Assembly (NCBI GenBank): GCA_951406725.2
Contig: OX597831.1
Span: 50,902,001-50,966,000 of the forward strand
DNA from: Octopus vulgaris
Lineage: Eukaryota
DNA: 64,000 bases
Direction: 5' to 3'
In this document: one piece after another, positions 7,860-62,385 of the stretch
Position numbering within the stretch: the first letter of the stretch is position 1
How the letters are laid out: each line of letters begins with the position of its first letter
The notes under the pieces: generated by a model
What the model was told of the DNA's origin: nothing
Seen by the model: only the letters and a program-made list of their open reading frames with translations
The model's database searches: none
Program-made: the position numbers and the translations under genes

Positions 7860-10063
7860 AGGTATAATAGTGCAGATCTATACTATAATAGTGTAGATCT
7901 ATACTATAATCTCCTATACAATTAAATTACTATAATCTCCTATATAAATAAATTACAAAGAAATATTAGATTATAAATAGTGATGTCCTAAAATCTATTA
8001 ACATTAAAGCAAACAAATAATGAGTGAATATAAATTGATGACGTAACTGAAGTCTATGAACCATCTAGGCCTAGAATTAGTATGAAAGAGCACAAACTTA
8101 ATTTTCATACTGATCCAAAGGTAAGCCCCCCCCCCCACTACAAATCCGACATCGGAAAACTAAGCAAATTTATCTTAGACAAATACTTGCACTTACTGAA
8201 ATCCAAAATTAATCTTATCCTGTGGTTAAAAACTCTAGATACAATCAGCTGGTTCGCCATCATTCAAAATAAGGAAAAATGTAAATTCATAACTCGACAT
8301 AGACAACTATTACCCATCTATAAACCCTATATTACATAATAAAGCACTTATCTTCGCCAAGAACAGGACCAAATTATCAATGAATGAAATTAAAATCATA
8401 CTTGAAGGGAGAAAAACTATAATCTCACATCGAGGTAAATATTGGACTAGGAAGGATACTTCTGACTGTTTTGATGTACCTATGGGCGCGCCTGACTCCG
8501 CTAAAGTGACCGATTTAGTTGGAATTTACCTTCTACACTTACTTAAAGAAGAATTTCCTGAATTAGAAGGTAGTCTTTACCGCGACGATGCACTATTCTT
8601 AGTTAGAAATACCTCCAACAGGGAACTGAACTATACAAAAAAAGCTACATAATTTCTTCAAAAACCAAGGACTATCCATCACTAGTGAAAAAGATAATAA
8701 CACTGTGAACTTCGACGTTAACTTTAACCTTAATAGTTCATCATATCAACCTTACCATAAGCCTAACAACAACATCACATACATACATGCTCAAAGCAAC
8801 CATCCATATAATATTATAAGAAATCTAACCTCTCACATAGAAAGTAGAATTAACCTATTATCATCTAATGAAGAAACTTTTAATAAAGAAGGCAGGATAC
8901 AAATATCAAATTAAGTACAATAAAAACAATAACACCAATTCTAATTATACTAATAGTTGTCTCGATATGAACAACAGCCCATATTAGTGAACCTAAATCC
9001 ACTGCTGATTCAGTAAACCCAAAAAACAATAAAAATGTTTCAATAATAATAATCCTCAGCAATACATTTGCATTAGACTAAAATCCTACAACAAAAATAA
9101 ACATAATAATAAACAGATTCAATATGAGTGCAACAACCTTGACCTCACTAAAAGAAAAAATAATACTAATTTCACCAATTCACAAAACACAAACTACACT
9201 ATTAATAATGTAATAAAATCCAAGTATACTAACAATAAACACCGAAAACAATTAATTATAGATAAAAATAGAGACACTAAACCAATACACTTAAAAAATG
9301 AAATTTATCACATCACATCTAATCCTTCAAATAATTTAAATAACCTCAGAATTCATATTAATAGAGATAGGAACAATATAGAAAAAAAGAAACCTATACC
9401 ATATGTAAGAATAAATGACCCCCAAAGCATAACCCACTGCGATAATAACGATAGCAACAATAACATTACTTGGATCGTAATACCTTTTGCCAAACATCTA
9501 AAATCAAATTTTATTAGATCCATTAGAAATATTATATAAAAAGAAATATTATATAAAAAAAATTCCAAACTTGTGTAGGATAATCTCTTCATTTAGCAAT
9601 AAGAAACTGGACCAATTCTATTATAATAAAACTTCTTCTAATAAACCTAGTAACTTCATAAATTCTATAACTAATAACTACAATTATAAGAATAACTAAA
9701 ACACAATTTACCCCTAATACATATAGACATAGCAATATAGTACCAACTAAGAATTCAAATTGTAATTGTAGAAACCCTAATATTGTGAAGTAGATGGAAA
9801 CTGTAAAATGAAAGAAGTAGTATACCAAGCAACAATTATTACCCATAATCTCTCTAAATTTATTTACATTGGTTGTACGAAGAATTCTCTAAAATTAAGA
9901 ATTACTAATCATAAATCATCCTTTAATGACCTTCGTGAAGAGAATAGAACAGGTCTATCCAAAAAAGTTTGGCAACTCAAAAGAAACAATATAGATTACT
10001 CAATCTCTTGGAAAATATTGTCTTCAGCCCCATCTTATACACATAACAAAATCTGTAAATTAT

Positions 10064-10228
10064 ACAGTTCTATATTTAAGAGATGAGGAATTATATACAT
10101 TATTTACATTATTCACATTTGACATATATTTGTCATCTTTACGTCATATGCCCACGAGCATATGACGTGGTGGCTAAGAGCGTAGGCTACTAGCCCCAAG
10201 ACTTCGAGTTCGATTCCAGGCAGTGACC

Positions 10229-25160: not shown

Positions 25161-25820
25161 GACGGCGAGCTAACAAAATCGTTGCCACACCGGGCAAAAT
25201 GCTTTGCGGTATTTCGTCTGCCGCTACGTTCTGAGTTCAAATTCCGCCGAGGTCGACTTTGCCTTTCATCCTTTCGGGGTCGATTAAATAAGTACCAGTT
25301 ACGCACTGGGGTCAATATAATCGACTTAATCCGTTTGTCTGTCCTTGTTTGTCCTCTCTGTGTTTAGCCCCTTGTGGGTAGTAAAGAAATAGGTATTTCG
25401 TCTGCCGCTACGTTCTGAGTTCAAATTCCGCCGAGGTCGACTTTGCCTTTCATCCTTTCGGGGTCGATTAAATAAGTACCAGTTACGCACTGGGGTCAAT
25501 ATAATCGACTTAATCCGTTTGTCTGTCCTTGTTTGTCCTCTCTGTGTTTAGCCCCTTGTGGGTAATAAAGAAATAGGTATTTCGTCTGCCGCTACGTTCT
25601 GAGTTAAAATTCCGCCAAGGTCGACTTTGCCTTTCATTCTTTCGGGGTCGATTAAATAAGTACCAGTTACGCACTGGGGTCAATATAATCGACTTAATCC
25701 GTTTGTCTGTCCTAATTTGTCCTCTCTGTGTTTAGCCCCTTGTGGGTAGTAAAGAAATAGGTATTTCGTCCGTCTTTGCGTTCAGAGTTCAAATTCCACC
25801 GAGGTCTCATTTGCCTTTTG
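25161..25820 (+). mobile_element. SINE family A with three tandem 184 bp units
   Basis: Units start ggtatttcgtc at 25208, 25392, 25576 and 25760 (the last partial and divergent). Confidence 0.9.
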
Positions 25821-26588: not shown

Positions 26589-26720
26589 TACATTATTTAC
26601 ATTTGACGGATATTCGCCCTCATCTTGTTTGTTGTTAACACAACGTTTCACAGCCTTCTTCAGGTGTCTTGGGGAAATTTCGAACTTGGGTTCTCATTCC
26701 TAAGGTATTTTTCGATGTTA
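26589..26720 (-). mobile_element. 3' part of the HHR-tailed SINE-like element
   Basis: Reverse complement aligns with ~10308-10450; gacac ctgaaga aggctg..gaaacgttgtgtt with loop II deleted. Confidence 0.8.
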
Positions 26721-35552: not shown

Positions 35553-38090
35553 AACTGTCCACTGGTGTAAATTCGGTCAACTGCCTACTAGCGCAAATTC
35601 GATCAACTGTCCACTGGTCTAAATTCGATCAACTATCTACATGTGCAAATTCGATCAACTATCTAATGGTCTAAATTCGATCAACTGTCCACTGGTGTAA
35701 ATTCGATCATCTGTCTACTTGTGCAAATTCGATCAACTGTCCACTGCTCTAAATCTGATCAACTGTCCACTAGCGCAAATTCGATCAGCTGTCCATTAGC
35801 GAATATTCGATCAACTGTCCACTAGCGAAAATTCGATCAACTCTCCACTGGTGTAAATTCGATCAACTGTCCACTAGCGAAAATACGATCAAATGTCCAC
35901 TGGTGTAAATTTGATTAACTTTTTACTTGTGCAAATTCCATCAATTGTCCATTGGTGTAAATTCGATCAGCTGTCCACTAGCGCAAATTCGATCAACTGT
36001 CCAATAACGAAAATTCAATAAACTTTCCACTAGTGAAAATTCTATCAACTGTTCACTAGCAAAAATTCGATCGACTATCGACTGGTCTAAATTCGATCAA
36101 CTATCCACTGGTGTAAATTTGATCAACTGTCCACTAGCGAAAATTTGATCAACTGTCCACTAGCGCAAATTCGATCAACTGTCCACTGGTCTAAATTCGA
36201 TCAAGTCTCCACGAGCGCAAATTCGATCAACTGTCCACTAGTCTAAATTCGATCAACTGTCTGTCCATTGCTGTAACTTCAATCAACTGCCCACTAGCGC
36301 AAATTCGATCAACTGTCCACTTGTGTAAATTCGATCAACTGTCCAATTGCATAACATTCGATCAACCGTCCACTAGCGAAAATTCGGTCAATTGTCCACT
36401 AGTCTGAATCCGATCACCTGTCCACTGGTGTAAATTCGATCAATTGTTCACTAGCGAAAATTCGATCAACTGTCCACTGGTCTAAATGCGATCAACTATC
36501 CACTGGCGTAAATTCAATCAACTGTCTGCTAGCGCAAATTCGATCAAATGTCTACATGTGCAAATTCGATCAACTGTCCACTAACGCAAATTCGATCAAC
36601 TGTCCACTAGTCTAAATTCTATCAACTGTCCACTAATGTTAATTCGATCAACTGTCCACTAGCGAAAATTCGATCAACTGTCCACTGGTCTAAATTCGAT
36701 CAACTGTCCACTAGCGAAAATTCGATCAACTGTTCACTAGCGCAAATTCGATCAACGGTTCACTGGTCTAAATTCGATTAAGTCTCCACGAGCGCAAATT
36801 CGATCAACTGTCCACTAGTGTGACTTCAATCAACTGCCCACTAGCGCAAATTCGATCAACTGTCCACTTGTGTAAATTCGATCAACTGTCCAATAGCATA
36901 AAATTCGATCAACCATCCACTAGCGATAATTCGGTCAATTGTCCACTAGTCTAAATCCGATCACCTGTCCACTAGTCTAAATCCGATCACCTGTCCACTG
37001 GTGTAAATTCGATCAATTGTTCACTAGCGAAAATTCAATCAACTGTCCACTCGCCCAAATTCGATCAACTGTCCACTGGTCTAAATGCGATCAGCTATCC
37101 ACTGGCGTAAATTCGATCAACTGTCATCTAGCGCAAATTCGATCAAATGTCTACATGTGCAAATTCGATCAACTGTCCACTAGTCTAAATTCGATCAACT
37201 GTCCACTAGTGAAAATTCGATCAACTGTCCACTTGTGTAAATTCGATCAACTGTCCAATAGCATAAAATTCGATGAACCGTCCACATAGCGAAAATTCGG
37301 TCAATTGTCCACTAGTCTAAATCCGATCACCTGTCCACTGGTGTAAATTCGATCAATTATTCACTAGCGAAAATTCGATCAACTATCCACTCGCCCAAAT
37401 TCGATCAACTGTCCACTGGTCTAAATGCGATCAACTATCCACTGGCGTAAATTCGATCAACTGGCTGCTAGCGGAAACTCGATCAAATGTCTACATGTGC
37501 AAATTCGATCAACTGTCCACTAGCGCAAATTCGATCAACTGTCCGCTAGCGAAAATTCGATCAACTGTCCACTAGCGAAAATTCGATCAACTGTCCACTA
37601 ATGTAAATTCGATCAACTGTTCACTAGCAAAAATACGATCAAATGTTCACTAGCAAAAATTCGATCAACAGTCCCCTGGTCTAAATTCGATCAACTGTCT
37701 ACTGGTGTAAATTCGATCAATTGTTCACTAGCAAAAATTCAATCAACTCTCCACGAGCGCAAATTCGATCAACTGTCCACAGGTCTAAATGCGATCAACT
37801 ATCCACTGGCGTAAATTCGATCAACTGTCTGCTAGCGAAAATTCGATCAAATGTCTACATGTGCAAATTCGATCAAATGTCCACTAGCGAAAATTCGATC
37901 AACTGTCCACTAGCGCAAATTCGATCAACTGTCCACTGGTCTAAATTCGATCAACTGTCCACTAGCGAAAATTCGATCAACTGTCCACTCGTCTAAATTC
38001 GGTCGGTCAACTGTCTACTAGCAAAAATTCGATCAACAGTCCACTAGAGAAAATTCGATCAACTGTCCACTGGTGTGTAAATTCGATCAA
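35553..38090. repeat. 26 bp minisatellite array, roughly 95-100 units
   Basis: Consensus aaattcgatcaactgtccact(agcga/agcgc/ggtgt/ggtct). Confidence 0.97.
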
Positions 38091-38209
38091 TAACCGTTTG
38101 TCTCAAAAAAATACACTGTTCAGAATTATGAAAATGAAGTAGTGACAGGACAGCAACCGAAAATTCCCGCTCATTTCCCCCAAAAAATACACTGTTCAAA
38201 ATTCTGAAA

Positions 38210-38362
38210 TTTCAGTTCCTTCTCAAACTCAGCTTCGCCATGACAATTAACAAAGCACAAGGTCAGTCCCTGGAAGTTGTCGGATTGAACCTTCGAACGT
38301 CACGCTTTTCATATGGACAGTTCTACGTCGGGTGTTCCAGAGTTGGCCATTCAGACAACTTA
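38210..38362 (+). pseudogene. Helitron PIF1-like helicase C-terminal fragment
   Basis: Translates to LKLSFAMTINKAQGQSLEVVGLNLRTSRFSYGQFYVGCSRVG (helicase motifs V and VI). Confidence 0.88.
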
Positions 38363-38538
38363 CTCAGAAACCGAAAATATCCATTCGTCTCTGAAAAAAA
38401 TAATACACAGTTCTAAATTATGAAAATAAGGTAGTGACAGGACTGCAACCGAAATATCCGTTTCTCAAACAAAACAGGTGAAAACGACTAAAATGAGAAA
38501 GTACAAACGTTCAGTAAATAGGCATTTGTCAAAGAAAA

Positions 38539-41300: not shown

Positions 41301-43408
41301 TTGTCTATGATGAAAGACTCTCGGATAGTTCTTAATTACCGGTTATTCTTTACATGAAAGCAGGCAATAACAAATCACCAAAGATTTCAAGTAGTGCCTT
41401 CTCTTGTGATTCAAAGAGACAATACTCTCCTTAGAATACAATCTGTACCCAGCAATGCTGTGTTCTGGTTCACCTCGAGCCTGATGACAGCTCCAATATT
41501 CTTAATATGTTTTTCAAAACCCTTGGAAACTGCTCCTTATTGTCCAATTACCACCGGTATCACCATTAATTTCCTCATGTCCCATAACTTTCCTATCTCG
41601 TCCCGCAGTGGCTGGTATTTCTCACACTTTTCTGTTTCCTTACATTTCACCCCCGAATCGCCTGGTATTGCAACATCTATTATCTTTGCTTCTTTTTCAT
41701 CATTATGGATGTGCACGATATCTGCTCGTCTCGCCTCAGTGACTTGGTCACACTGCATGTTAAAATCCCAAAGTATTTTGTAATGTTCGTTTTCCATTAC
41801 TCCCTGTGGCTTGTGTTCATACCATCGTTCGACTCACTCGAGGTTTGCTTTATCGCACAACAGCCAGTGGACATACCTGGCCACATTGTCGTGTCTCCGT
41901 TTGTACTCGCGCTGTGCGAGCTTACAGCACTCACTAACAATATGGCTTCTACTTTCTCTTTTCTCAGAGCACATCTTACACTGTGGCGAGTCAGTGCTTT
42001 TATCAATGTGATATTTGGAGTAGTTTGTTCTGAGAGCTTGTTCTTAAGCGCTGCACACTAATGCCTCAGTGGGCCCTTTTAAGTCTCCTTTCTGTAGCCA
42101 TTGCTAGGTTCTATTCCAATCAATTTCATCTTTATTCTTCAAGAACTGACTGTGCATTTTCTTGTCCACCCAAATTTTCTTCATCTGCTCTGTCTGGTTT
42201 TTCTTAAATTGTGTTGGATCTACGGCTTCGTTCACTTTTAAGGCTCCTTGAATTTTCACTGCTTCAATAATTTCTTCTTTACTCCCCTTGACATACCAAG
42301 CCAGGCTATTCTCCTCTTCCCTTACACAACCTTCACAACACACCAATCCCCATTTTCCTTCTTTCCTCTTCACATACAATCTTGACACTGCACTCTTGGG
42401 GTGTAGTTCCTTGTTCATTTTCATTAATTTACCTGTTCTCAGTCTATCTCTTGTAATTCATGCTTCTTCCAAGATACTATTCCTGTCCCATATCTCATCA
42501 AAACAACATCCCACGTGTTAAATTGCTCTAATCTTATAGTGGCCATGTAGCTTCGACTGGAGCACAAACCGAGTCCTCTTCAAATAGTCTTTCCTGCATA
42601 TTTCTTTCATCTTGTGTGTATTCATCTTATCTCTTTCATTGATACCCAGGTACTTAAATCCTTCCTCTCCGATTTCCTTTATAATTTCACCACTTTCCAG
42701 CTTGATCCCATGGCTTTTACTGGTTTTCTCCCTTTTGAGAATCATTACTCCACATTTCTCGATTCCAAATTCCATGCCGATATCTTTGCTAATCATCTGC
42801 ACAATCGCCGTCAAACTCTCAATTTCTTTCTCAGTCTTAGCGAATAGCTTTAGGTCATCCATAAATCACAGCTTGTTAACTTTCACTCTGCCTAGTATGT
42901 ACCCCACACGTATCTTTCTTAAACGCTTGTTAGTGGCAGTATGCAGACAACAAATCGGAGAGGCGACAGACTGTCCCCTTGAAAGATTCCTCTTTTGATA
43001 TTTACCTCTCCCAGCTTATCTCCCCATGCTGTGAGTTCAGTTCGCCACGTTGTCATTGAGCTTTGTATTTACTTCAGGATATTGTGGGAAACCTTCAGCA
43101 GTTTAAGGCATCCAATAATCCACGAGTGTGGGACCATGTCATATGCTTTCCTGTAGTCCACCCACGCCATCGCCAAATTTTTGCGTCTCTTCTTGCAATC
43201 ATCCAGGATAGTCTTATTGATTAGTAATTGATACTTCGTTCCTCTGCTCTAACGTCTACACCCTTTTTGTTCCACTGGTAGAAAGTCGTTCTCATCTAGG
43301 TACTCATAGATGCTGTTTGATATGATGCCCGTCATCAGTTTCCACATCAGTGGCAAATAAGATATTGGTGGTAAGTTTCCAACCACATTCCCTTTACTTG
43401 GGTCCTTG
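41301..43408 (-). mobile_element. 5'-truncated R4/Dong-like non-LTR retrotransposon (RT + CCHC + RLE)
   Basis: [80 protein letters not shown]; 3' end abuts (TAA)n. Confidence 0.92.
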
Positions 43409-43577
43409 TTGGTGGTAGTGGTGGTAGTGTTACCAAGCTTAACTTTTTTTCTTCATTCTTCTAGAGTCCATGAAATAAATACCTATAAACTACTGTCCTC
43501 TTCAAACTTTGTTGTATATGAACGGAAATTAAACAATTTTATCTTTGAAGCAATTATATATATAGATATATATATAA

Positions 43578-43624
<47 letters not shown>

Positions 43625-43634
43625 CATACATACA

Positions 43635-43668
<34 letters not shown>

Positions 43669-43686
43669 CATGCATACATATATATG

Positions 43687-43726
<40 letters not shown>

Positions 43727-43799
43727 GAATATGTATGCATATATATATGTGTGTGTACATATATGAATGTATATATTTATATATATGTGTGAGCATAAA

Positions 43800-43867
<68 letters not shown>

Positions 43868-43892
43868 TTTTTTTAATTTATTATATAGAAGG

Positions 43893-43943
43893 AGCTTCTA
43901 CAGGACTAGTACTGTTTCATTCAAGAGAAATCTTCAGGAAGCT
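43893..43943 (-). ncRNA. Type I hammerhead ribozyme
   Basis: Reverse complement of 47717-47767. Confidence 0.85.
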
Positions 43944-44273
43944 ATTTAACAAGAATTGTATTAGCATTTATACATTTAGGCAGGTTTAAAGGAGTGGTGG
44001 TGGGGGACTTTTTTGGGGGTAGGCATAGCGCAAAATATCATACTTGGGGGTGTGGTCAAGGAGTCAGTGGTAAGTTAGATGAAAGAATAGATAAATAAAA
44101 AAATAAAAAAATAAAAAAATAAAAAAATAAAATAATAAAAAAAAATATATATAAAAAATATATATATAAAAAATATATATATAAAAAAAAAGGGGGGATA
44201 GAGTTATAGGTAAATAAGGAGATTCTCACTTATACCTATACACATATGTATACGTATCTACACACATATATAA

Positions 44274-44324
<51 letters not shown>

Positions 44325-44667
44325 CACATATACATACATATCTACATACACACATACATACACCCGCCCACATATACAAATTTATACACATGCACATGCA
44401 TATACCTGTCTACACATACACATACGTATATATGCATACACTCACTCCCAACCCCCCCTACAACCCCCCCAACCCCACTGTTCCCCTAGCACCCCCGATT
44501 ACCTTTTCTCCTAAGACCTTTCACATATTGTATGTGCACGCTTGTATATGTGTATCGTATGTATGTATATATGTATAGAAATGCATGGGTACAGTAGGAA
44601 TATACGCATGTATTATGTGTGTGTGTGTGTATGTATGCATGTAAAAATATATATATGTATATATATT

Positions 44668-44706
<39 letters not shown>

Positions 44707-45378
44707 GCTTGTATGTGTGTGTGTGTGTATATATGTATATGTGTTTGTATGTATATGTGTATATATGCGTATATGAATATGTATGTGTAAATGTATGTGT
44801 TTATGTATGTGTATGTATGTATAAAATATTATATAATTATGGCTTAGTAAAATAAAATAAATTACTTTGCCACATACTAAACTTTCTAGAAATAGCAGCC
44901 AATAAAGTTTTTTAGCCTCTTCCACTACTTAGAGAATTTTTTTCCCTCTAACATTGTTTACTCAAAATAATAATGGTCCCTTTACATACTGAATACTTGG
45001 TGAAATTGATTAATAACTAATTAACTTTACCCTCCCTTGTTGATATATATATATGTATATGTGTACATGTATGTATATATGTGTGTGTGTGTATGTGTGT
45101 ATGTATGTTTTTGTATATGTGTGTGTGTATATGTATGTGTGCGCGTGTGTGTGTATGTATGTGTATGTATATTTGTATATGTATATGCATGTATATATAT
45201 GTGTGTGTATATGTGTATTATGTATGTATTTATATAGATATGTAATTTATATATATATGTATGTATATGCATCTGTCTGTGTGTGTGTATGTGTATATAT
45301 GTGTATCATTATTGCGTATGTATACATGTATATGTGTATATGTATGTGTGTGTGTGTGTATATATATATATAGGTATG

Positions 45379-45411
<33 letters not shown>

Positions 45412-45496
45412 ATGTACATGTATATATATATGTGTGTATATATATATATATGTTTATATGTGAGTATGTAGAGATATAAGTATATGCATGTGTATA

Positions 45497-45529
<33 letters not shown>

Positions 45530-45686
45530 GTATGGGTATGAGTATCAGTGTATATGTATATATGTATGTGTGTGTGTATGTATATGTATGTATATGTGTA
45601 TATATGTATGTGTATATGTGTATATATGTGTATATATATGTATGTATGTGTATGTGTATGTATATGTATATGTGTATGTATATGTA

Positions 45687-45736
<50 letters not shown>

Positions 45737-46452
45737 TGCGCGTGTGTGTATGTATGCATATATGTATGTATGCATGTATATGTGTATGTATATATGTGTG
45801 TAAATGTGTGCATATATGTATATGTAAGTATGTGTGCGTGTATGAGTATATATGTATGCTTGCACACGTGTATATATGTGTGTGTGTATATATATGGATG
45901 CGCGTGCGTGTGTGCACGTGTATGGGTACGCATGTATATGTGTATGAGCGTGTATGTGTATGTATGCATATATGTATGTATGCATGTATATGTGTATGTA
46001 TATATGTGTGTAAGTATGTGCATATATGTATATGTAAGTATGTGTGCGTGTATGAGTATGTATGTATGCTTGCACACGTGTATATATGTGTGTGTGTGTA
46101 TATATATGGATGCGCGTGCGTGTGTGCACGTGTATGGGTACGCATGTATATGTGTATGTGCGTGTATGTGTATACGTGTATGTATGTATGTGTGTGCGTG
46201 TATTTTTGTATATGTATGTGTGAGTGTGTATATATATATATATATATATAGATGGGTGTGTGTATGCGTATAAATGCATGTAAGTATGGATGTATGGATG
46301 TATGTATGTATGTATACGTATGTATGTGTTTGTGTGTATATGTATGTATGTGCGTGTATGTGTGTATATATATATATATGTGTGTATATATGTTTGTGTA
46401 TGTATATATATGTGTATGTATGTGTGTGTATATATATGTGCGTATGTGTATG

Positions 46453-46502
<50 letters not shown>

Positions 46503-46893
46503 TATGCATCTGTATGTAGGAGTATATGTGTGTGTGTGTATGTATATGTATATATATATATATATATGTATATTTATTGGTGTATATGTATAGACTAGCC
46601 TCCTTAAGTGTAGACACGAATCTGTAGGTACGAGTACGTATGTGTATATACGTGAACGTATGTAGATGTTTGTATGTATGAATATAACGCGTGCGTACGT
46701 GTATGTGTATGAGTGTACGAATGGGTGAATGTACGTGCTAATGAGTGTGCGTGCGGGAATGAGTACTTGCCTTCTAGTAGACAGACAAATGGACATGCTG
46801 CCATAGCCAGGATCCTTAGCTCTAGCGATCAAAGATAACAAAAGTAATAAATGAAGATAATAAAATTAAAATTAGGGAATGGGCCTGTATTGG

Positions 46894-46938
<45 letters not shown>

Positions 46939-47037
46939 GTGTATGTGTAGGTATGTATAGGTACACATGTGTATGTGTATGTGTATGTATATGTGTGTGT
47001 GTATGTATGTGCACACATGTATATATATGTATGCGTG

Positions 47038-47069
<32 letters not shown>

Positions 47070-47360
47070 TATGTGTATGTGGGTGTATGTATATATAGGT
47101 GTAAATATGTGTATATAGGGAACTAGGTGTGTTGTGTGTGCATGAGTGTATGTGTGTATGAATATATATTTTTCTGTGTATATATGTATGTGTGGTCGTG
47201 GGTATATATATACATGTGTGTATGCGTGCATGCATGGGAGTGAGTGTATGCATATATACGTGTGTGTATGTGTAGACAGGTATATGCATGTGCATGTGTA
47301 TAAATTTGTATATGTGGGCGGGTGTATGTATGTGTGTATGTAGATATGTATGTATATGTG

Positions 47361-47407
<47 letters not shown>

Positions 47408-47716
47408 TTATATATGTGTGTAGATACGTATACATATGTGTATAGGTATAAGTGAGAATCTCCTTATTTACCTATAACTCTATCCCCCCTTTTTTTTATA
47501 TATATATTTTTTATATATATATTTTTTATATATATATTTTTTTTTATTTTTTTATTTTTTTTTATTTATCTATTCTTTCATCTAACTTACCACTGACTCC
47601 TTGACCACTCCCCCAAGTATGATATTTTGCGCTATGCCTACCCCCAAAAAAGTCCCCCACCACCACTCCTTTAAACCTGCCTAAATGTATAAATGCTAAT
47701 ACAATTCTTGTTAAAT

Positions 47717-47767
47717 AGCTTCCTGAAGATTTCTCTTGAATGAAACAGTACTAGTCCTGTAGAAGCT
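47717..47767 (+). ncRNA. Type I hammerhead ribozyme
   Basis: AGCTTC CTGAAGA t TTC tctt GAA t GAAA CAG tactagtc CTG TA GAAGCT: complete core, three stems, GUA cleavage triplet. Confidence 0.85.
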
Positions 47768-47850
47768 CCTTCTATATAATAAATTAATTTTACTCTGCTA
47801 TGTATTGAGTACCTTACTTACTGTGGTTAACCCCGATTCAACCCGGGACC

Positions 47851-47918
<68 letters not shown>

Positions 47919-48134
47919 CTATATATATATCTGCGAGAGTTATGTTTAAATATACAAACACGTATACACCCACATAAACACACGCGCGCACACACATTCA
48001 CTTCGATATGAATTCGTTTTCGATAAGTATATCTATGTTTGCTTATACTTATGTCATCGAATATACATATATATTGCTGTCTCTGTGTGCAAAACAACGA
48101 TATGTATATATGTGAAATGTGTTTAAATATGAAT

Positions 48135-59963: not shown

Positions 59964-61814
59964 TGAGCGTCTGTTGTGATTTCCTCTTCTACATCAAGAG
60001 AACTTCCAATGTTATGTTGTGCAGAAACACTTGGGGGTTATTACAAAGGACTATATACTATTTATCCCATGACAGACATCAAAATTTAAGTAAACGACAA
60101 AAATAATTAAACCACTTTCTATTGGGTTACTAAAATGACAGCTCGTGAATATTTAATTCGTAAAAATTTCAGAGTAGCAGCTTAAAAATATAACCATAAT
60201 CGTTATTTTTCCTTTACATCACTAATGAACAATTATAAATGCTACATTTGTAATCTTGTTGATGGTTCGTTCATTTCTTCCCTTTTCCTCTTGTTTTTAA
60301 AATTGCATTTAAGAATTAAATTAACTGAATTGAATAAACACACATAAAAATAATGACAATATCGAAGCCGAGTCTAAAAGTAAAAATAACATAGAATTAT
60401 ATGGAATAGTTTTCAATTTTTCATTGAGTTGTCTTTAGGCGAAGATATGAGTATTTGTTCACAACAAAAATGTCTTCCAACAGTATATCTCTCATGTGGA
60501 AAATAGTCGTACGCGCGAGAGAGAAAATACGGGTTGAGCATAACATGTCATTAGAGAATAAGAAATATAATGTGATCAATTCAACACTGAAAATTTTGTT
60601 GCTTTTTTTTTTTTGGTTTTGGTTTTTCTATAAAACAAAGACAGAATTTTCAAGCATGAAGTCAATATCGCGCAATAAAATATTTATCATTTCTATTCAT
60701 TGAAAATGTCTTCCTTTGTTTAAATTTTATGAAGCTTTCTTTTATTCCATTTTTTAGGATATTTCTATTTTCATTTCTTATATCGGGTTAATGTCTTATA
60801 ATTACATTCCATTTATAATATTTTTTAAATATATTTGAAGAAATAAGAAAATTATTGTAATGGATGCGTATTTACAAACAATATATATTTCTTTAATAGC
60901 AACAACAATGTATCTTGGTAGAATATTCATGAACGAAAGCGGATAATGATAGAGAGGAATCGAAGATGGCCGGGCAATTGTACTGATCAATAAGTTACAG
61001 GTTCGTACCCCTCGGCGAGGCTGTGTGGTAAATAAATACCAGAGGATCACTGGGGTCGATGTAATCGACTTACCTCATCATTCGAATGTAAATAATGTAA
61101 ATAATAATGTACAATATTAAAAGGTATATAAAATAGTGATGAGGCAAAGTCATTAAAGCGTTAGAGAAAATGCTTTGTGATATTTAACTAGGGAATTTTG
61201 TTCTGAGTTCAAATCCGGCAGAGGTCAACTTTGGTCTTTTGGGGTGGTTCGATCGATGAAATAAAGAACCAAAAATGTAATGGATTGATATAATAGACCA
61301 CACACCTTCTTGCAAAATAATTTGAGGCCTTGTGCTAATCTCAAAAATCTATATTAAAAGATTAATCAACCGTTATCATAACCACGAAAACTATATGATT
61401 TCTCTCTTACCGTAAAATGGAGCTTTTTTTTTTTTTTGCAACTGGAATTCTTTGAAAGCATTGAATAAAATCCAAAACGTATATACGATAAATAATAAAC
61501 GATAACCATTATTAGAGTCGTAATTATGGTTTCAAATTTTGGTACATGTTAGGGGAAGTTGATTATCAATTACATTTACCCAGTGCTCAGTTGGCACTTA
61601 TTTTATCCACCGTGATGGGCTTTTAACTCAGAACCAAGAATGTAATGAGTCAGACATAATACTGTTAGGGATTATGTTTGTCACTCTAACGATTCTGTCA
61701 GCTTTCCACCTTTAAGGATCGTAATTATAAAACTTTATTATTCACCTCAATTTATCGTCAAACTACCGATGTTTTTTTACTATTCTCATTTCTGGAAGCA
61801 AATTTACCAGCAAC

Positions 61815-62385
61815 ATAGAGGAGACAAACAAGGACAGACAAAGAGATTAAGTCGATTACATCGACCCCAGTGCGTAACTGGTATTTAATTTATCGACCCC
61901 GAAAGGATGAAAGGCAAAGTCGACCTCGGCGGAATTTGAGCTCAGAACGTAGCGGCAGACGAAATACCTATTTCTTTACTACCCACAAGGGGCTAAACAC
62001 AGAGGGGACAAACAAGGACAGACAAACGGATTAAGTCGATTACATCGACCCCAGTGCGTGACTGGTACTTAAGTTATCGACCCCCGAAAGGATGAAAGGC
62101 AAAGTCGACCTCGGCGGAATTTGAGCTCAGAACGTAGCGGCAGACGAAATACCTATTTCTTTACTACCCACAAGGGGCTAAACACAGAGGGAACAAACAA
62201 GGACAGACAAACGGATTAAGTCGATTACATCGACCCCAGTGCGTGACTGGTACTTAATTTATCGACCCCGAAAGGATGAAAGGCAAAGTCGACCTGGGCG
62301 GAATTTGAACTCAGAACGCAGCGGCAGACGAAATACCACAAAGCATTTCGCCCGGCGTACTAACGTTTCTGCCAGCCCGTCACCT
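61815..62385 (-). mobile_element. SINE family A with about three tandem 184 bp units
   Basis: Same aaagaaataggtatttcgtc junctions as 25161-25820. Confidence 0.9.

Follow-up and report, generated by a model that had tools for sequence, protein, structure and literature searches.

In the 64-kb window of Octopus vulgaris DNA analysed here, to which all positions refer, a fold-back copy of a repeated family lies at 43873-47853 between two microsatellite tracts. It consists of the last 3.4 kb of the family element and a 578-nt inverted copy of the element's own end. The features of the locus are as follows, with the basis of each in brackets.

43555-43872, unstranded: left flank, a (TAGA/TACA/TA)n microsatellite forming the target tract (sister inverted arms adjoin (TA)n too)
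43873-44450, minus: inverted, 5'-truncated, tail-less copy of the element 3' end, 578 nt (arm alignment)
43893-43943, minus: left type I hammerhead, from one strand of stem I to the other, with a predicted cut between 43899 and 43898 (motif)
43967-43972, minus: left-arm TATA-like box, an outward-pointing candidate promoter (mirrors 47688-47693)
44449-44450, unstranded: inversion junction with 2 nt of microhomology, 3 nt past the ORF stop position of full-length copies (alignment to sister L037)
44449-47853, plus: direct 5'-truncated copy with complete 3' UTR, pLTR, hammerhead and tail (sister alignment)
44451-47716, plus: 3' UTR, chiefly TG/TATG-rich microsatellite-like DNA, with conserved unique islands at about 44460-44535, 44835-45045 and 46590-46895
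47235-47787, plus: right arm, the portion of the direct copy mirrored by the inverted arm (arm alignment)
47688-47693, plus: TATA-like box 29 nt upstream of the hammerhead (first base of stem I), with a putative transcription start near 47717 (copy-count step at the edge)
47717-47767, plus: right type I hammerhead of the Hydra type, with a U.U pair under helix II and a predicted cut after A47761 (motif)
47758-47776, plus: predicted competing hairpin that buries the cut site (fold prediction)
47785-47853, plus: 69-nt tail, on one arm only, which continues into the 5' UTR and ORF in full-length copies (sister copies)
47854-47930, unstranded: right flank, an (AT)n target tract (sequence)

The alignment of the two arms covers 578 columns, of which 550 match, 3 mismatch and 25 are gapped, nearly all gaps falling within A-rich and AT repeats, and no coding remnant is present inside the copy; on both points the first-pass annotation of this DNA was correct. 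It had, however, ended the element at 47787. The true 3' end is 47853, because in 28 of 30 loci among the genomic matches listed the sequence runs on into the same 69-nt tail, followed by (AT)n; this tail is common to the sister copies and absent from the inverted arm, which in most sisters ends near the equivalent of 47784.

Searching the 2.8-Gb genome with a 208-nt probe from the right arm gave 1,238 first-look candidates; all 40 that were scored are 100% identical, in keeping with the earlier suggestion that the element is young and, judged on sequence identity, establishing the youth of the family. The 27-nt hammerhead core has 4,062 exact genomic matches, the control having 0. The 40 probe matches are covered by 38 larger regions of about 8 kb each, a sample in which the probe favours tail-bearing ends. 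The full-length unit runs pLTR, hammerhead, tail, 713-aa ORF, UTR and pLTR, some units being in tandem, and measures 5.1-5.7 kb from hammerhead to hammerhead. In sisters that reach further 5', an ORF with RT and GIY-YIG domains ends just before the base matching window 44449, and the direct part of the window copy starts 3 nt after their stop codon; a Penelope-like element (PLE) origin with such a protein-coding partner, as had been supposed, is thereby borne out. Partial tandems forming pLTRs, inverted 5'-truncated copies, a one-ended tail and, as a motif, a type I hammerhead within the pLTR, all features of PLEs, are present in the family. The copy at this host locus is one of roughly two thousand long arms and as a locus is ordinary.

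The ORF begins about 175 nt past the hammerhead core and is continuous over 713 aa in sister L081, while RT and EN motifs lie in a single frame in 4 of 14 long loci; an ORF probe gave 94 genomic candidates. Pfam matches to the ORF are weak (RVT_1, E 0.027; nothing at 0.001) and a PDB sequence search with it returned 0 matches; the protein has 1,122 homologues of similar length. The frame is split between RT and EN at a six-C run in 20 of 26 copies, and a seven-letter run with a single frame is seen in 4 of the 26; at this site (around 2581-2600 in L051-L080) an interrupted or longer run is in frame. A programmed frameshift was considered, but homopolymer error or decayed copies are more likely, given that the longer run, which is in frame, occurs among the short-read contigs of each of the four runs.

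The protein carries RWR at 38 (RWK in most homologues), DKT at 116 and no GxKF, a CxCX5C linker (CNCPDKTTC) at 567, CDLC (CxxC) at 667 and CMH (CxH) at 695; its GIY-YIG core holds one Cys only and CCHH is absent. In Craig et al. (2021, PMC8557442), the Hydra clade is characterized by RW[KR], DKG changed to DKT, GxKF/Y not conserved, a CxCX5C linker, CxxC and CxH around conserved E and N, and absence of CCHH. The CX2-5CxxC linker and CCHH that mark Neptune and Nematis are both absent from the 713-aa protein. The insertion preference for (TA)n holds across the examined loci, as in the Hydra clade, whereas the unit exceeds the length of less than 3 kb which is a tendency of that clade and not a strict criterion. 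Placed by motifs and not by a tree with named references, the family is a Hydra-clade EN+ PLE; it is a new member of a known clade with a known architecture, and what is unusual about it is an oversized UTR and a set of informative sister insertions.

Within the same source, Hydra-clade elements including Hydra-1_Obim of Octopus bimaculoides likewise have RT followed by GIY-YIG in one ORF, a (TA)n target and a hammerhead close to the 3' end whose helix II often stands on U.U. The complete families listed there measure 2.1-2.7 kb against 5.1-5.7 kb here, the unit being longer because of its 2.5-3.7 kb UTR, and the tail is 69 nt here against the 30-40 nt given for PLEs. Hydra-1_Obim is 2,507 bp long, and the window family differs from it because their hammerhead sequences differ (PMC8557442 supplement). 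No description of the family, of a TATA box or start site at the edge of a Hydra hammerhead, or of miniature palindromes centred on that edge was found in the mostly open-access literature searched, which did not extend to Repbase.

The interior of the fold-back, previously described as filler, is the 3' UTR of the family: it aligns as family sequence across the 38 sister regions, and its unique islands have 99-100% identity to two copies of the same subfamily that were checked and roughly 86-97% to three from a second subfamily. As the islands are conserved in both subfamilies, the spacer is old within the family and has been carried along. From stop codon to hammerhead it spans 2,465-3,680 nt in 17 family copies (22 rows less two that were interrupted and three without a hammerhead in the fetched stretch), compared with 90-1,101 nt (median 176) in 35 relatives, chosen from 77 as those in which a hammerhead follows the ORF match. 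The UTR probably arose by capture of microsatellite DNA, spacer capture between ORF and 3' pLTR having been described in rotifers. In Adineta vaga, whose Penelope elements (Arkhipova et al. 2013, PMC3846280) share with this family inverted pLTRs, an optional tail at one end, palindromic inverted junctions and a TATA in the pLTR, Pen1 has a captured spacer of 0.9-1.5 kb in this position; the rotifer spacers vary between copies, whereas here one microsatellite-like spacer is fixed and is shared in diverged form by two subfamilies. Such a UTR is a route by which a retrotransposon can add 'microsatellite' DNA that repeat annotation would miss. Short inverted ends of the family are inserted inside its own microsatellite-like UTR at L087 and L094, which suggests that the UTR supplies fresh target sites for the family. 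UGUAHAUA sites number 41 on the sense strand and 3 on the antisense strand, but a Pumilio sponge was rejected as their explanation, the excess being one of composition (order-2 to -4 Markov controls give 44-54).

Inverted arms occur in 29 of the 38 sister loci within the approximately 8 kb fetched, so the earlier proposal of an inverted pLTR-type copy holds; the arms range in length from 73 nt to 3.3 kb, and every locus has a breakpoint of its own. The tail is on exactly one arm in 28 of these 29 sisters and in 20 of 20 short loci. The tail-less arm is far longer than the tailed arm in L042 and L185 and so cannot be a copy of the tailed cDNA; in the long class, where the tail-less arm can exceed the tailed one, both arms therefore need an RNA template. 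The two outer ends, 47853 and about 47784, also appear as loose ends in short-read contigs of other runs. Breakpoints at 44450-44452 in both the window copy and L175 fall in a C-rich tract that directly follows the stop codon (window 44451-44500), a possible RT pause site where the cDNA would be G-rich.

The interpretation first offered was a non-autonomous, retrozyme-like element; on a fuller version of it, the 3.9-kb fold-back would be a retrozyme- or MITE-like unit that moves whole with PLE proteins supplied in trans. The window copy does have no ORF, two motif-intact hammerheads and its cis ends; rotifer pLTRs, moreover, are reported to mobilise captured DNA in trans (PMC3846280). The explanation is nevertheless quite improbable, since the window junction recurs in 0 of 38 sister loci, whose breakpoints are spread from 73 nt to 3.3 kb, and since the body of the fold-back is the UTR of ORF-bearing copies. 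Non-LTR retrozymes, as defined in bioRxiv 10.64898/2026.07.22.740005, resemble the window copy in a type I hammerhead, absence of an ORF and relation to PLEs, but they are short head-to-tail tandem units, whereas the window copy is no tandem array and is instead the head-to-head truncation product of an autonomous element. Still more remote is an inversion created by misassembly of repeated low-complexity DNA: three substitutions and 25 gap columns separate the arms, the tail is on one arm only as in the sisters, palindrome junctions exist in independent short-read contigs, and the same architecture is published for the Hydra family Penelope-13_HM. This Repbase entry, as reported in the PMC8557442 supplement, has an inverted 5'-truncated copy at its 5' end and a hammerhead on both strands, as here, but it retains ORF sequence while the window copy is cut after the stop codon. 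In favour of misassembly, the sequence is microsatellite-rich and high-copy, and homopolymers may have been under-called in the assembly: at the RT/EN junction the run of C is shorter in 20 of 26 copies than it often is in short-read contigs. Contigs bridging 44450 are found in none of four runs, which is uninformative either way as the contigs are short and the individuals may be without the insertion.

The window copy is thus best read, with a probability of about 0.9, as a 5'-truncated, end-inverted copy of a young autonomous Hydra-clade PLE inserted in a (TA)n tract. It is no new protein-free element, and its fold-back architecture is already described for PLEs. Both the one-tail rule and the fixity of the outer ends fit a scheme in which a cDNA is primed by each of the cut strands, the pair then being joined head to head. 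In this scheme the element's enzyme would cut both target strands and the RNA would be copied twice, with one strand priming cDNA at the tail end (47853) and the other at about 47784, where the tail starts. Of the two cDNAs, one would halt just short of the ORF and the other after 578 nt, and they would be joined via 2 nt of microhomology, the RNA templates likely being uncut by the ribozyme. Poseidon of Anolis carolinensis (PAc; Frangieh et al. 2024, PMC11167929) works alike in vitro, the purified protein cutting both strands and starting RT at two tail-bounding sites on an uncut RNA template. PAc belongs to another clade, and its ORF starts inside the hammerhead, in contrast to about 175 nt after the core here. 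Thousands of near-identical insertions record where copying started and stopped in vivo, and the family therefore bears on two questions about PLEs, namely the origin of the inverted end and tail and whether the hammerhead cuts the RNA that is integrated, which mostly it seems not to do.

Each arm carries an outward type I hammerhead composed of a 6-bp stem I, CUGAAGA, a 3-bp helix II on a U.U pair, GAAA, a 4-bp helix III with an 8-nt loop containing a palindrome, and GUA, so that the ribozymes first reported here, and the cut predicted after A47761, stand at the level of motif. In the proposed search with hammerhead models, no Rfam hammerhead reached its gathering score or stood among the weak matches listed (150 of 201), the weak matches being microsatellite-driven miRNA models only. 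A simple descriptor recovers both arms. It makes 3 matches in the window, against 0.13 per window in 30 dinucleotide-shuffled controls, and matches 54 of 77 fetched relative loci, many with U.U. The U.U under helix II departs from the usual G-C and is common in the published list of Hydra-clade hammerheads (PMC8557442 supplement). The third window match is an unrelated minimal type I motif at 26630-26670 on the minus strand (about 26663 in the descriptor search), with a 2-bp helix III, which probably derives from another PLE family. The hammerheads, earlier called intact, appear so in motif only: with the tail included, the hairpin at 47758-47776 (-23.4 kcal/mol) is predicted to beat the hammerhead fold (-18.9 kcal/mol) and to bury the cut site. 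Hairpins in the tail are predicted too, at a z of about -1.2 that is not significant.

Counts of exact matches along the element end are 4,807 just past the cut site (22-nt probe), 4,062 for the core (27-nt probe), 1,992 across the hammerhead 5' edge and 2,080 further upstream. They drop little across the cut site and halve at the ribozyme 5' edge, where about half of the 4,062 cores begin. Miniature palindromes centred on this edge, with varied junctions, occupy 794 loci, or 1,623 with older loop variants allowed, and edge-centred junctions are also found in short-read contigs of other runs. Palindromes centred near the cut site number 19, and truncation there was accordingly dismissed as the main 5' end; since the edge-centred class so far outnumbers them, integrated templates seem mostly to be uncut. 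The predicted tail hairpin would be in line with mostly uncut templates, as would the low activity of metazoan PLE hammerheads (PMC4209133). The 800-1,600 miniature palindromes are about 200 nt long, centred on the 5' strand of stem I, with one tail each (e.g. L192-L211), and their variants change mainly at core position 7 and in loops II and III. Arms carrying different loop variants occur in 14 of 1,623, which lends no support to random pairing of RNAs from different subfamilies; by sequence, same-loop arms fit one RNA or source locus, and for the short class they are compatible with twin priming and with fold-back synthesis alike.

We slightly favour the hammerhead 5' edge being the transcription start. 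The window family has a TATAAA 29 nt upstream of this edge. Among 45 distinct relatives, 18 have TATAW between -43 and -35 relative to the core, where shuffled sequence gives 3.5 (0 of 1000 shuffles reach 18; some of the 45 are close kin, one is a (TA)n flank, and 27 are without TATAW in that interval); the strict form TATAWA gives 10 against 1.0. Against a TATA start stands the TATA-less internal promoter of Drosophila Penelope (PMC2377424). The pile-up of copy ends at the edge could also reflect splicing at an acceptor site, stalling of RT on the folded ribozyme or annealing of two cDNAs at the 4-nt palindrome of stem I, a set of explanations that deserves serious weight even if we lean somewhat against it. 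The edge does read as pyrimidines followed by AG|C, like a splice acceptor, an intron end at helix I is reported in Drosophila Penelope (PMC4209133), and the perfect palindromes have a self-complementary 4-mer at their centre. However, no intron-skipping joint at the hammerhead edge was seen in short-read contigs of four runs (weak evidence, from contigs only), the palindrome junctions show no common upstream exon, and the TATA box 29 nt upstream is enriched at this distance in relatives; cDNA ends pairing with the other strand of stem I were found at 6 places only, and this route was discarded.

If the edge is a transcription start, a TATA promoter would start transcripts at the first base of the hammerhead, and short transcripts would yield the run-off cDNA pairs seen as 800-1,600 miniature hammerhead palindromes; the right arm of the window copy could supply such short RNAs. 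The broader proposal, which in our view has even chances of being right, is that in Hydra-clade PLEs transcription starts from a TATA box at the hammerhead first base, RT primed at both tail ends on uncut RNA runs off the 5' end like retroviral strong-stop DNA, paired run-offs become the miniature palindromes, and long transcripts spread the fixed 3-kb TG-rich UTR. Truncated copies such as the one in the window would then be promoters feeding the short class, and the genome would record, in readable form, how PLEs prime in vivo and that the ribozyme stays uncut.

The first-pass suggestion of a long dsRNA and ADAR substrate is possible on condition that host read-through covers the whole 4 kb: the arms are predicted to pair at about -914 kcal/mol if co-transcribed, but the candidate TATA promoters in both arms face outward. 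Such fold-backs could form dsRNA where they are located in host transcripts. No host exon was found among the 107 window reading frames scanned, a scan that would miss short exons, and four of the 107 have Pfam matches below the cut-off. Two runs, which at a guess are RNA, have contigs that cover the ORF but are uninformative on transcription, ends and editing.

Elsewhere in the window, a GIY-YIG fragment at 9781-10083 on the plus strand (Pfam E 2.7e-4, below cut-off) is perhaps, with neighbouring frames near 9033-9536, a decayed PLE. A 26-bp tandem repeat in 97 copies occupies 35553-38090, and after it comes a frame at 38138-38413 with a weak helicase match; the two together may be, at a guess, a Helitron-like relic. 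Tandem arrays of a 184-185-bp SINE-like repeat, which resembles the octopus OK SINEs, lie at 25208-25818 and 61812-62337, and a LINE-like reverse transcriptase fragment lies at 42521-42865 on the minus strand, about 1 kb left of the fold-back. Outside the window, two-ORF PLEs of another clade, with a CxxPxCxxC-type linker and a coiled-coil upstream ORF, adjoin family copies at L038 (482-4194, minus) and L050 (3028-6110, plus).
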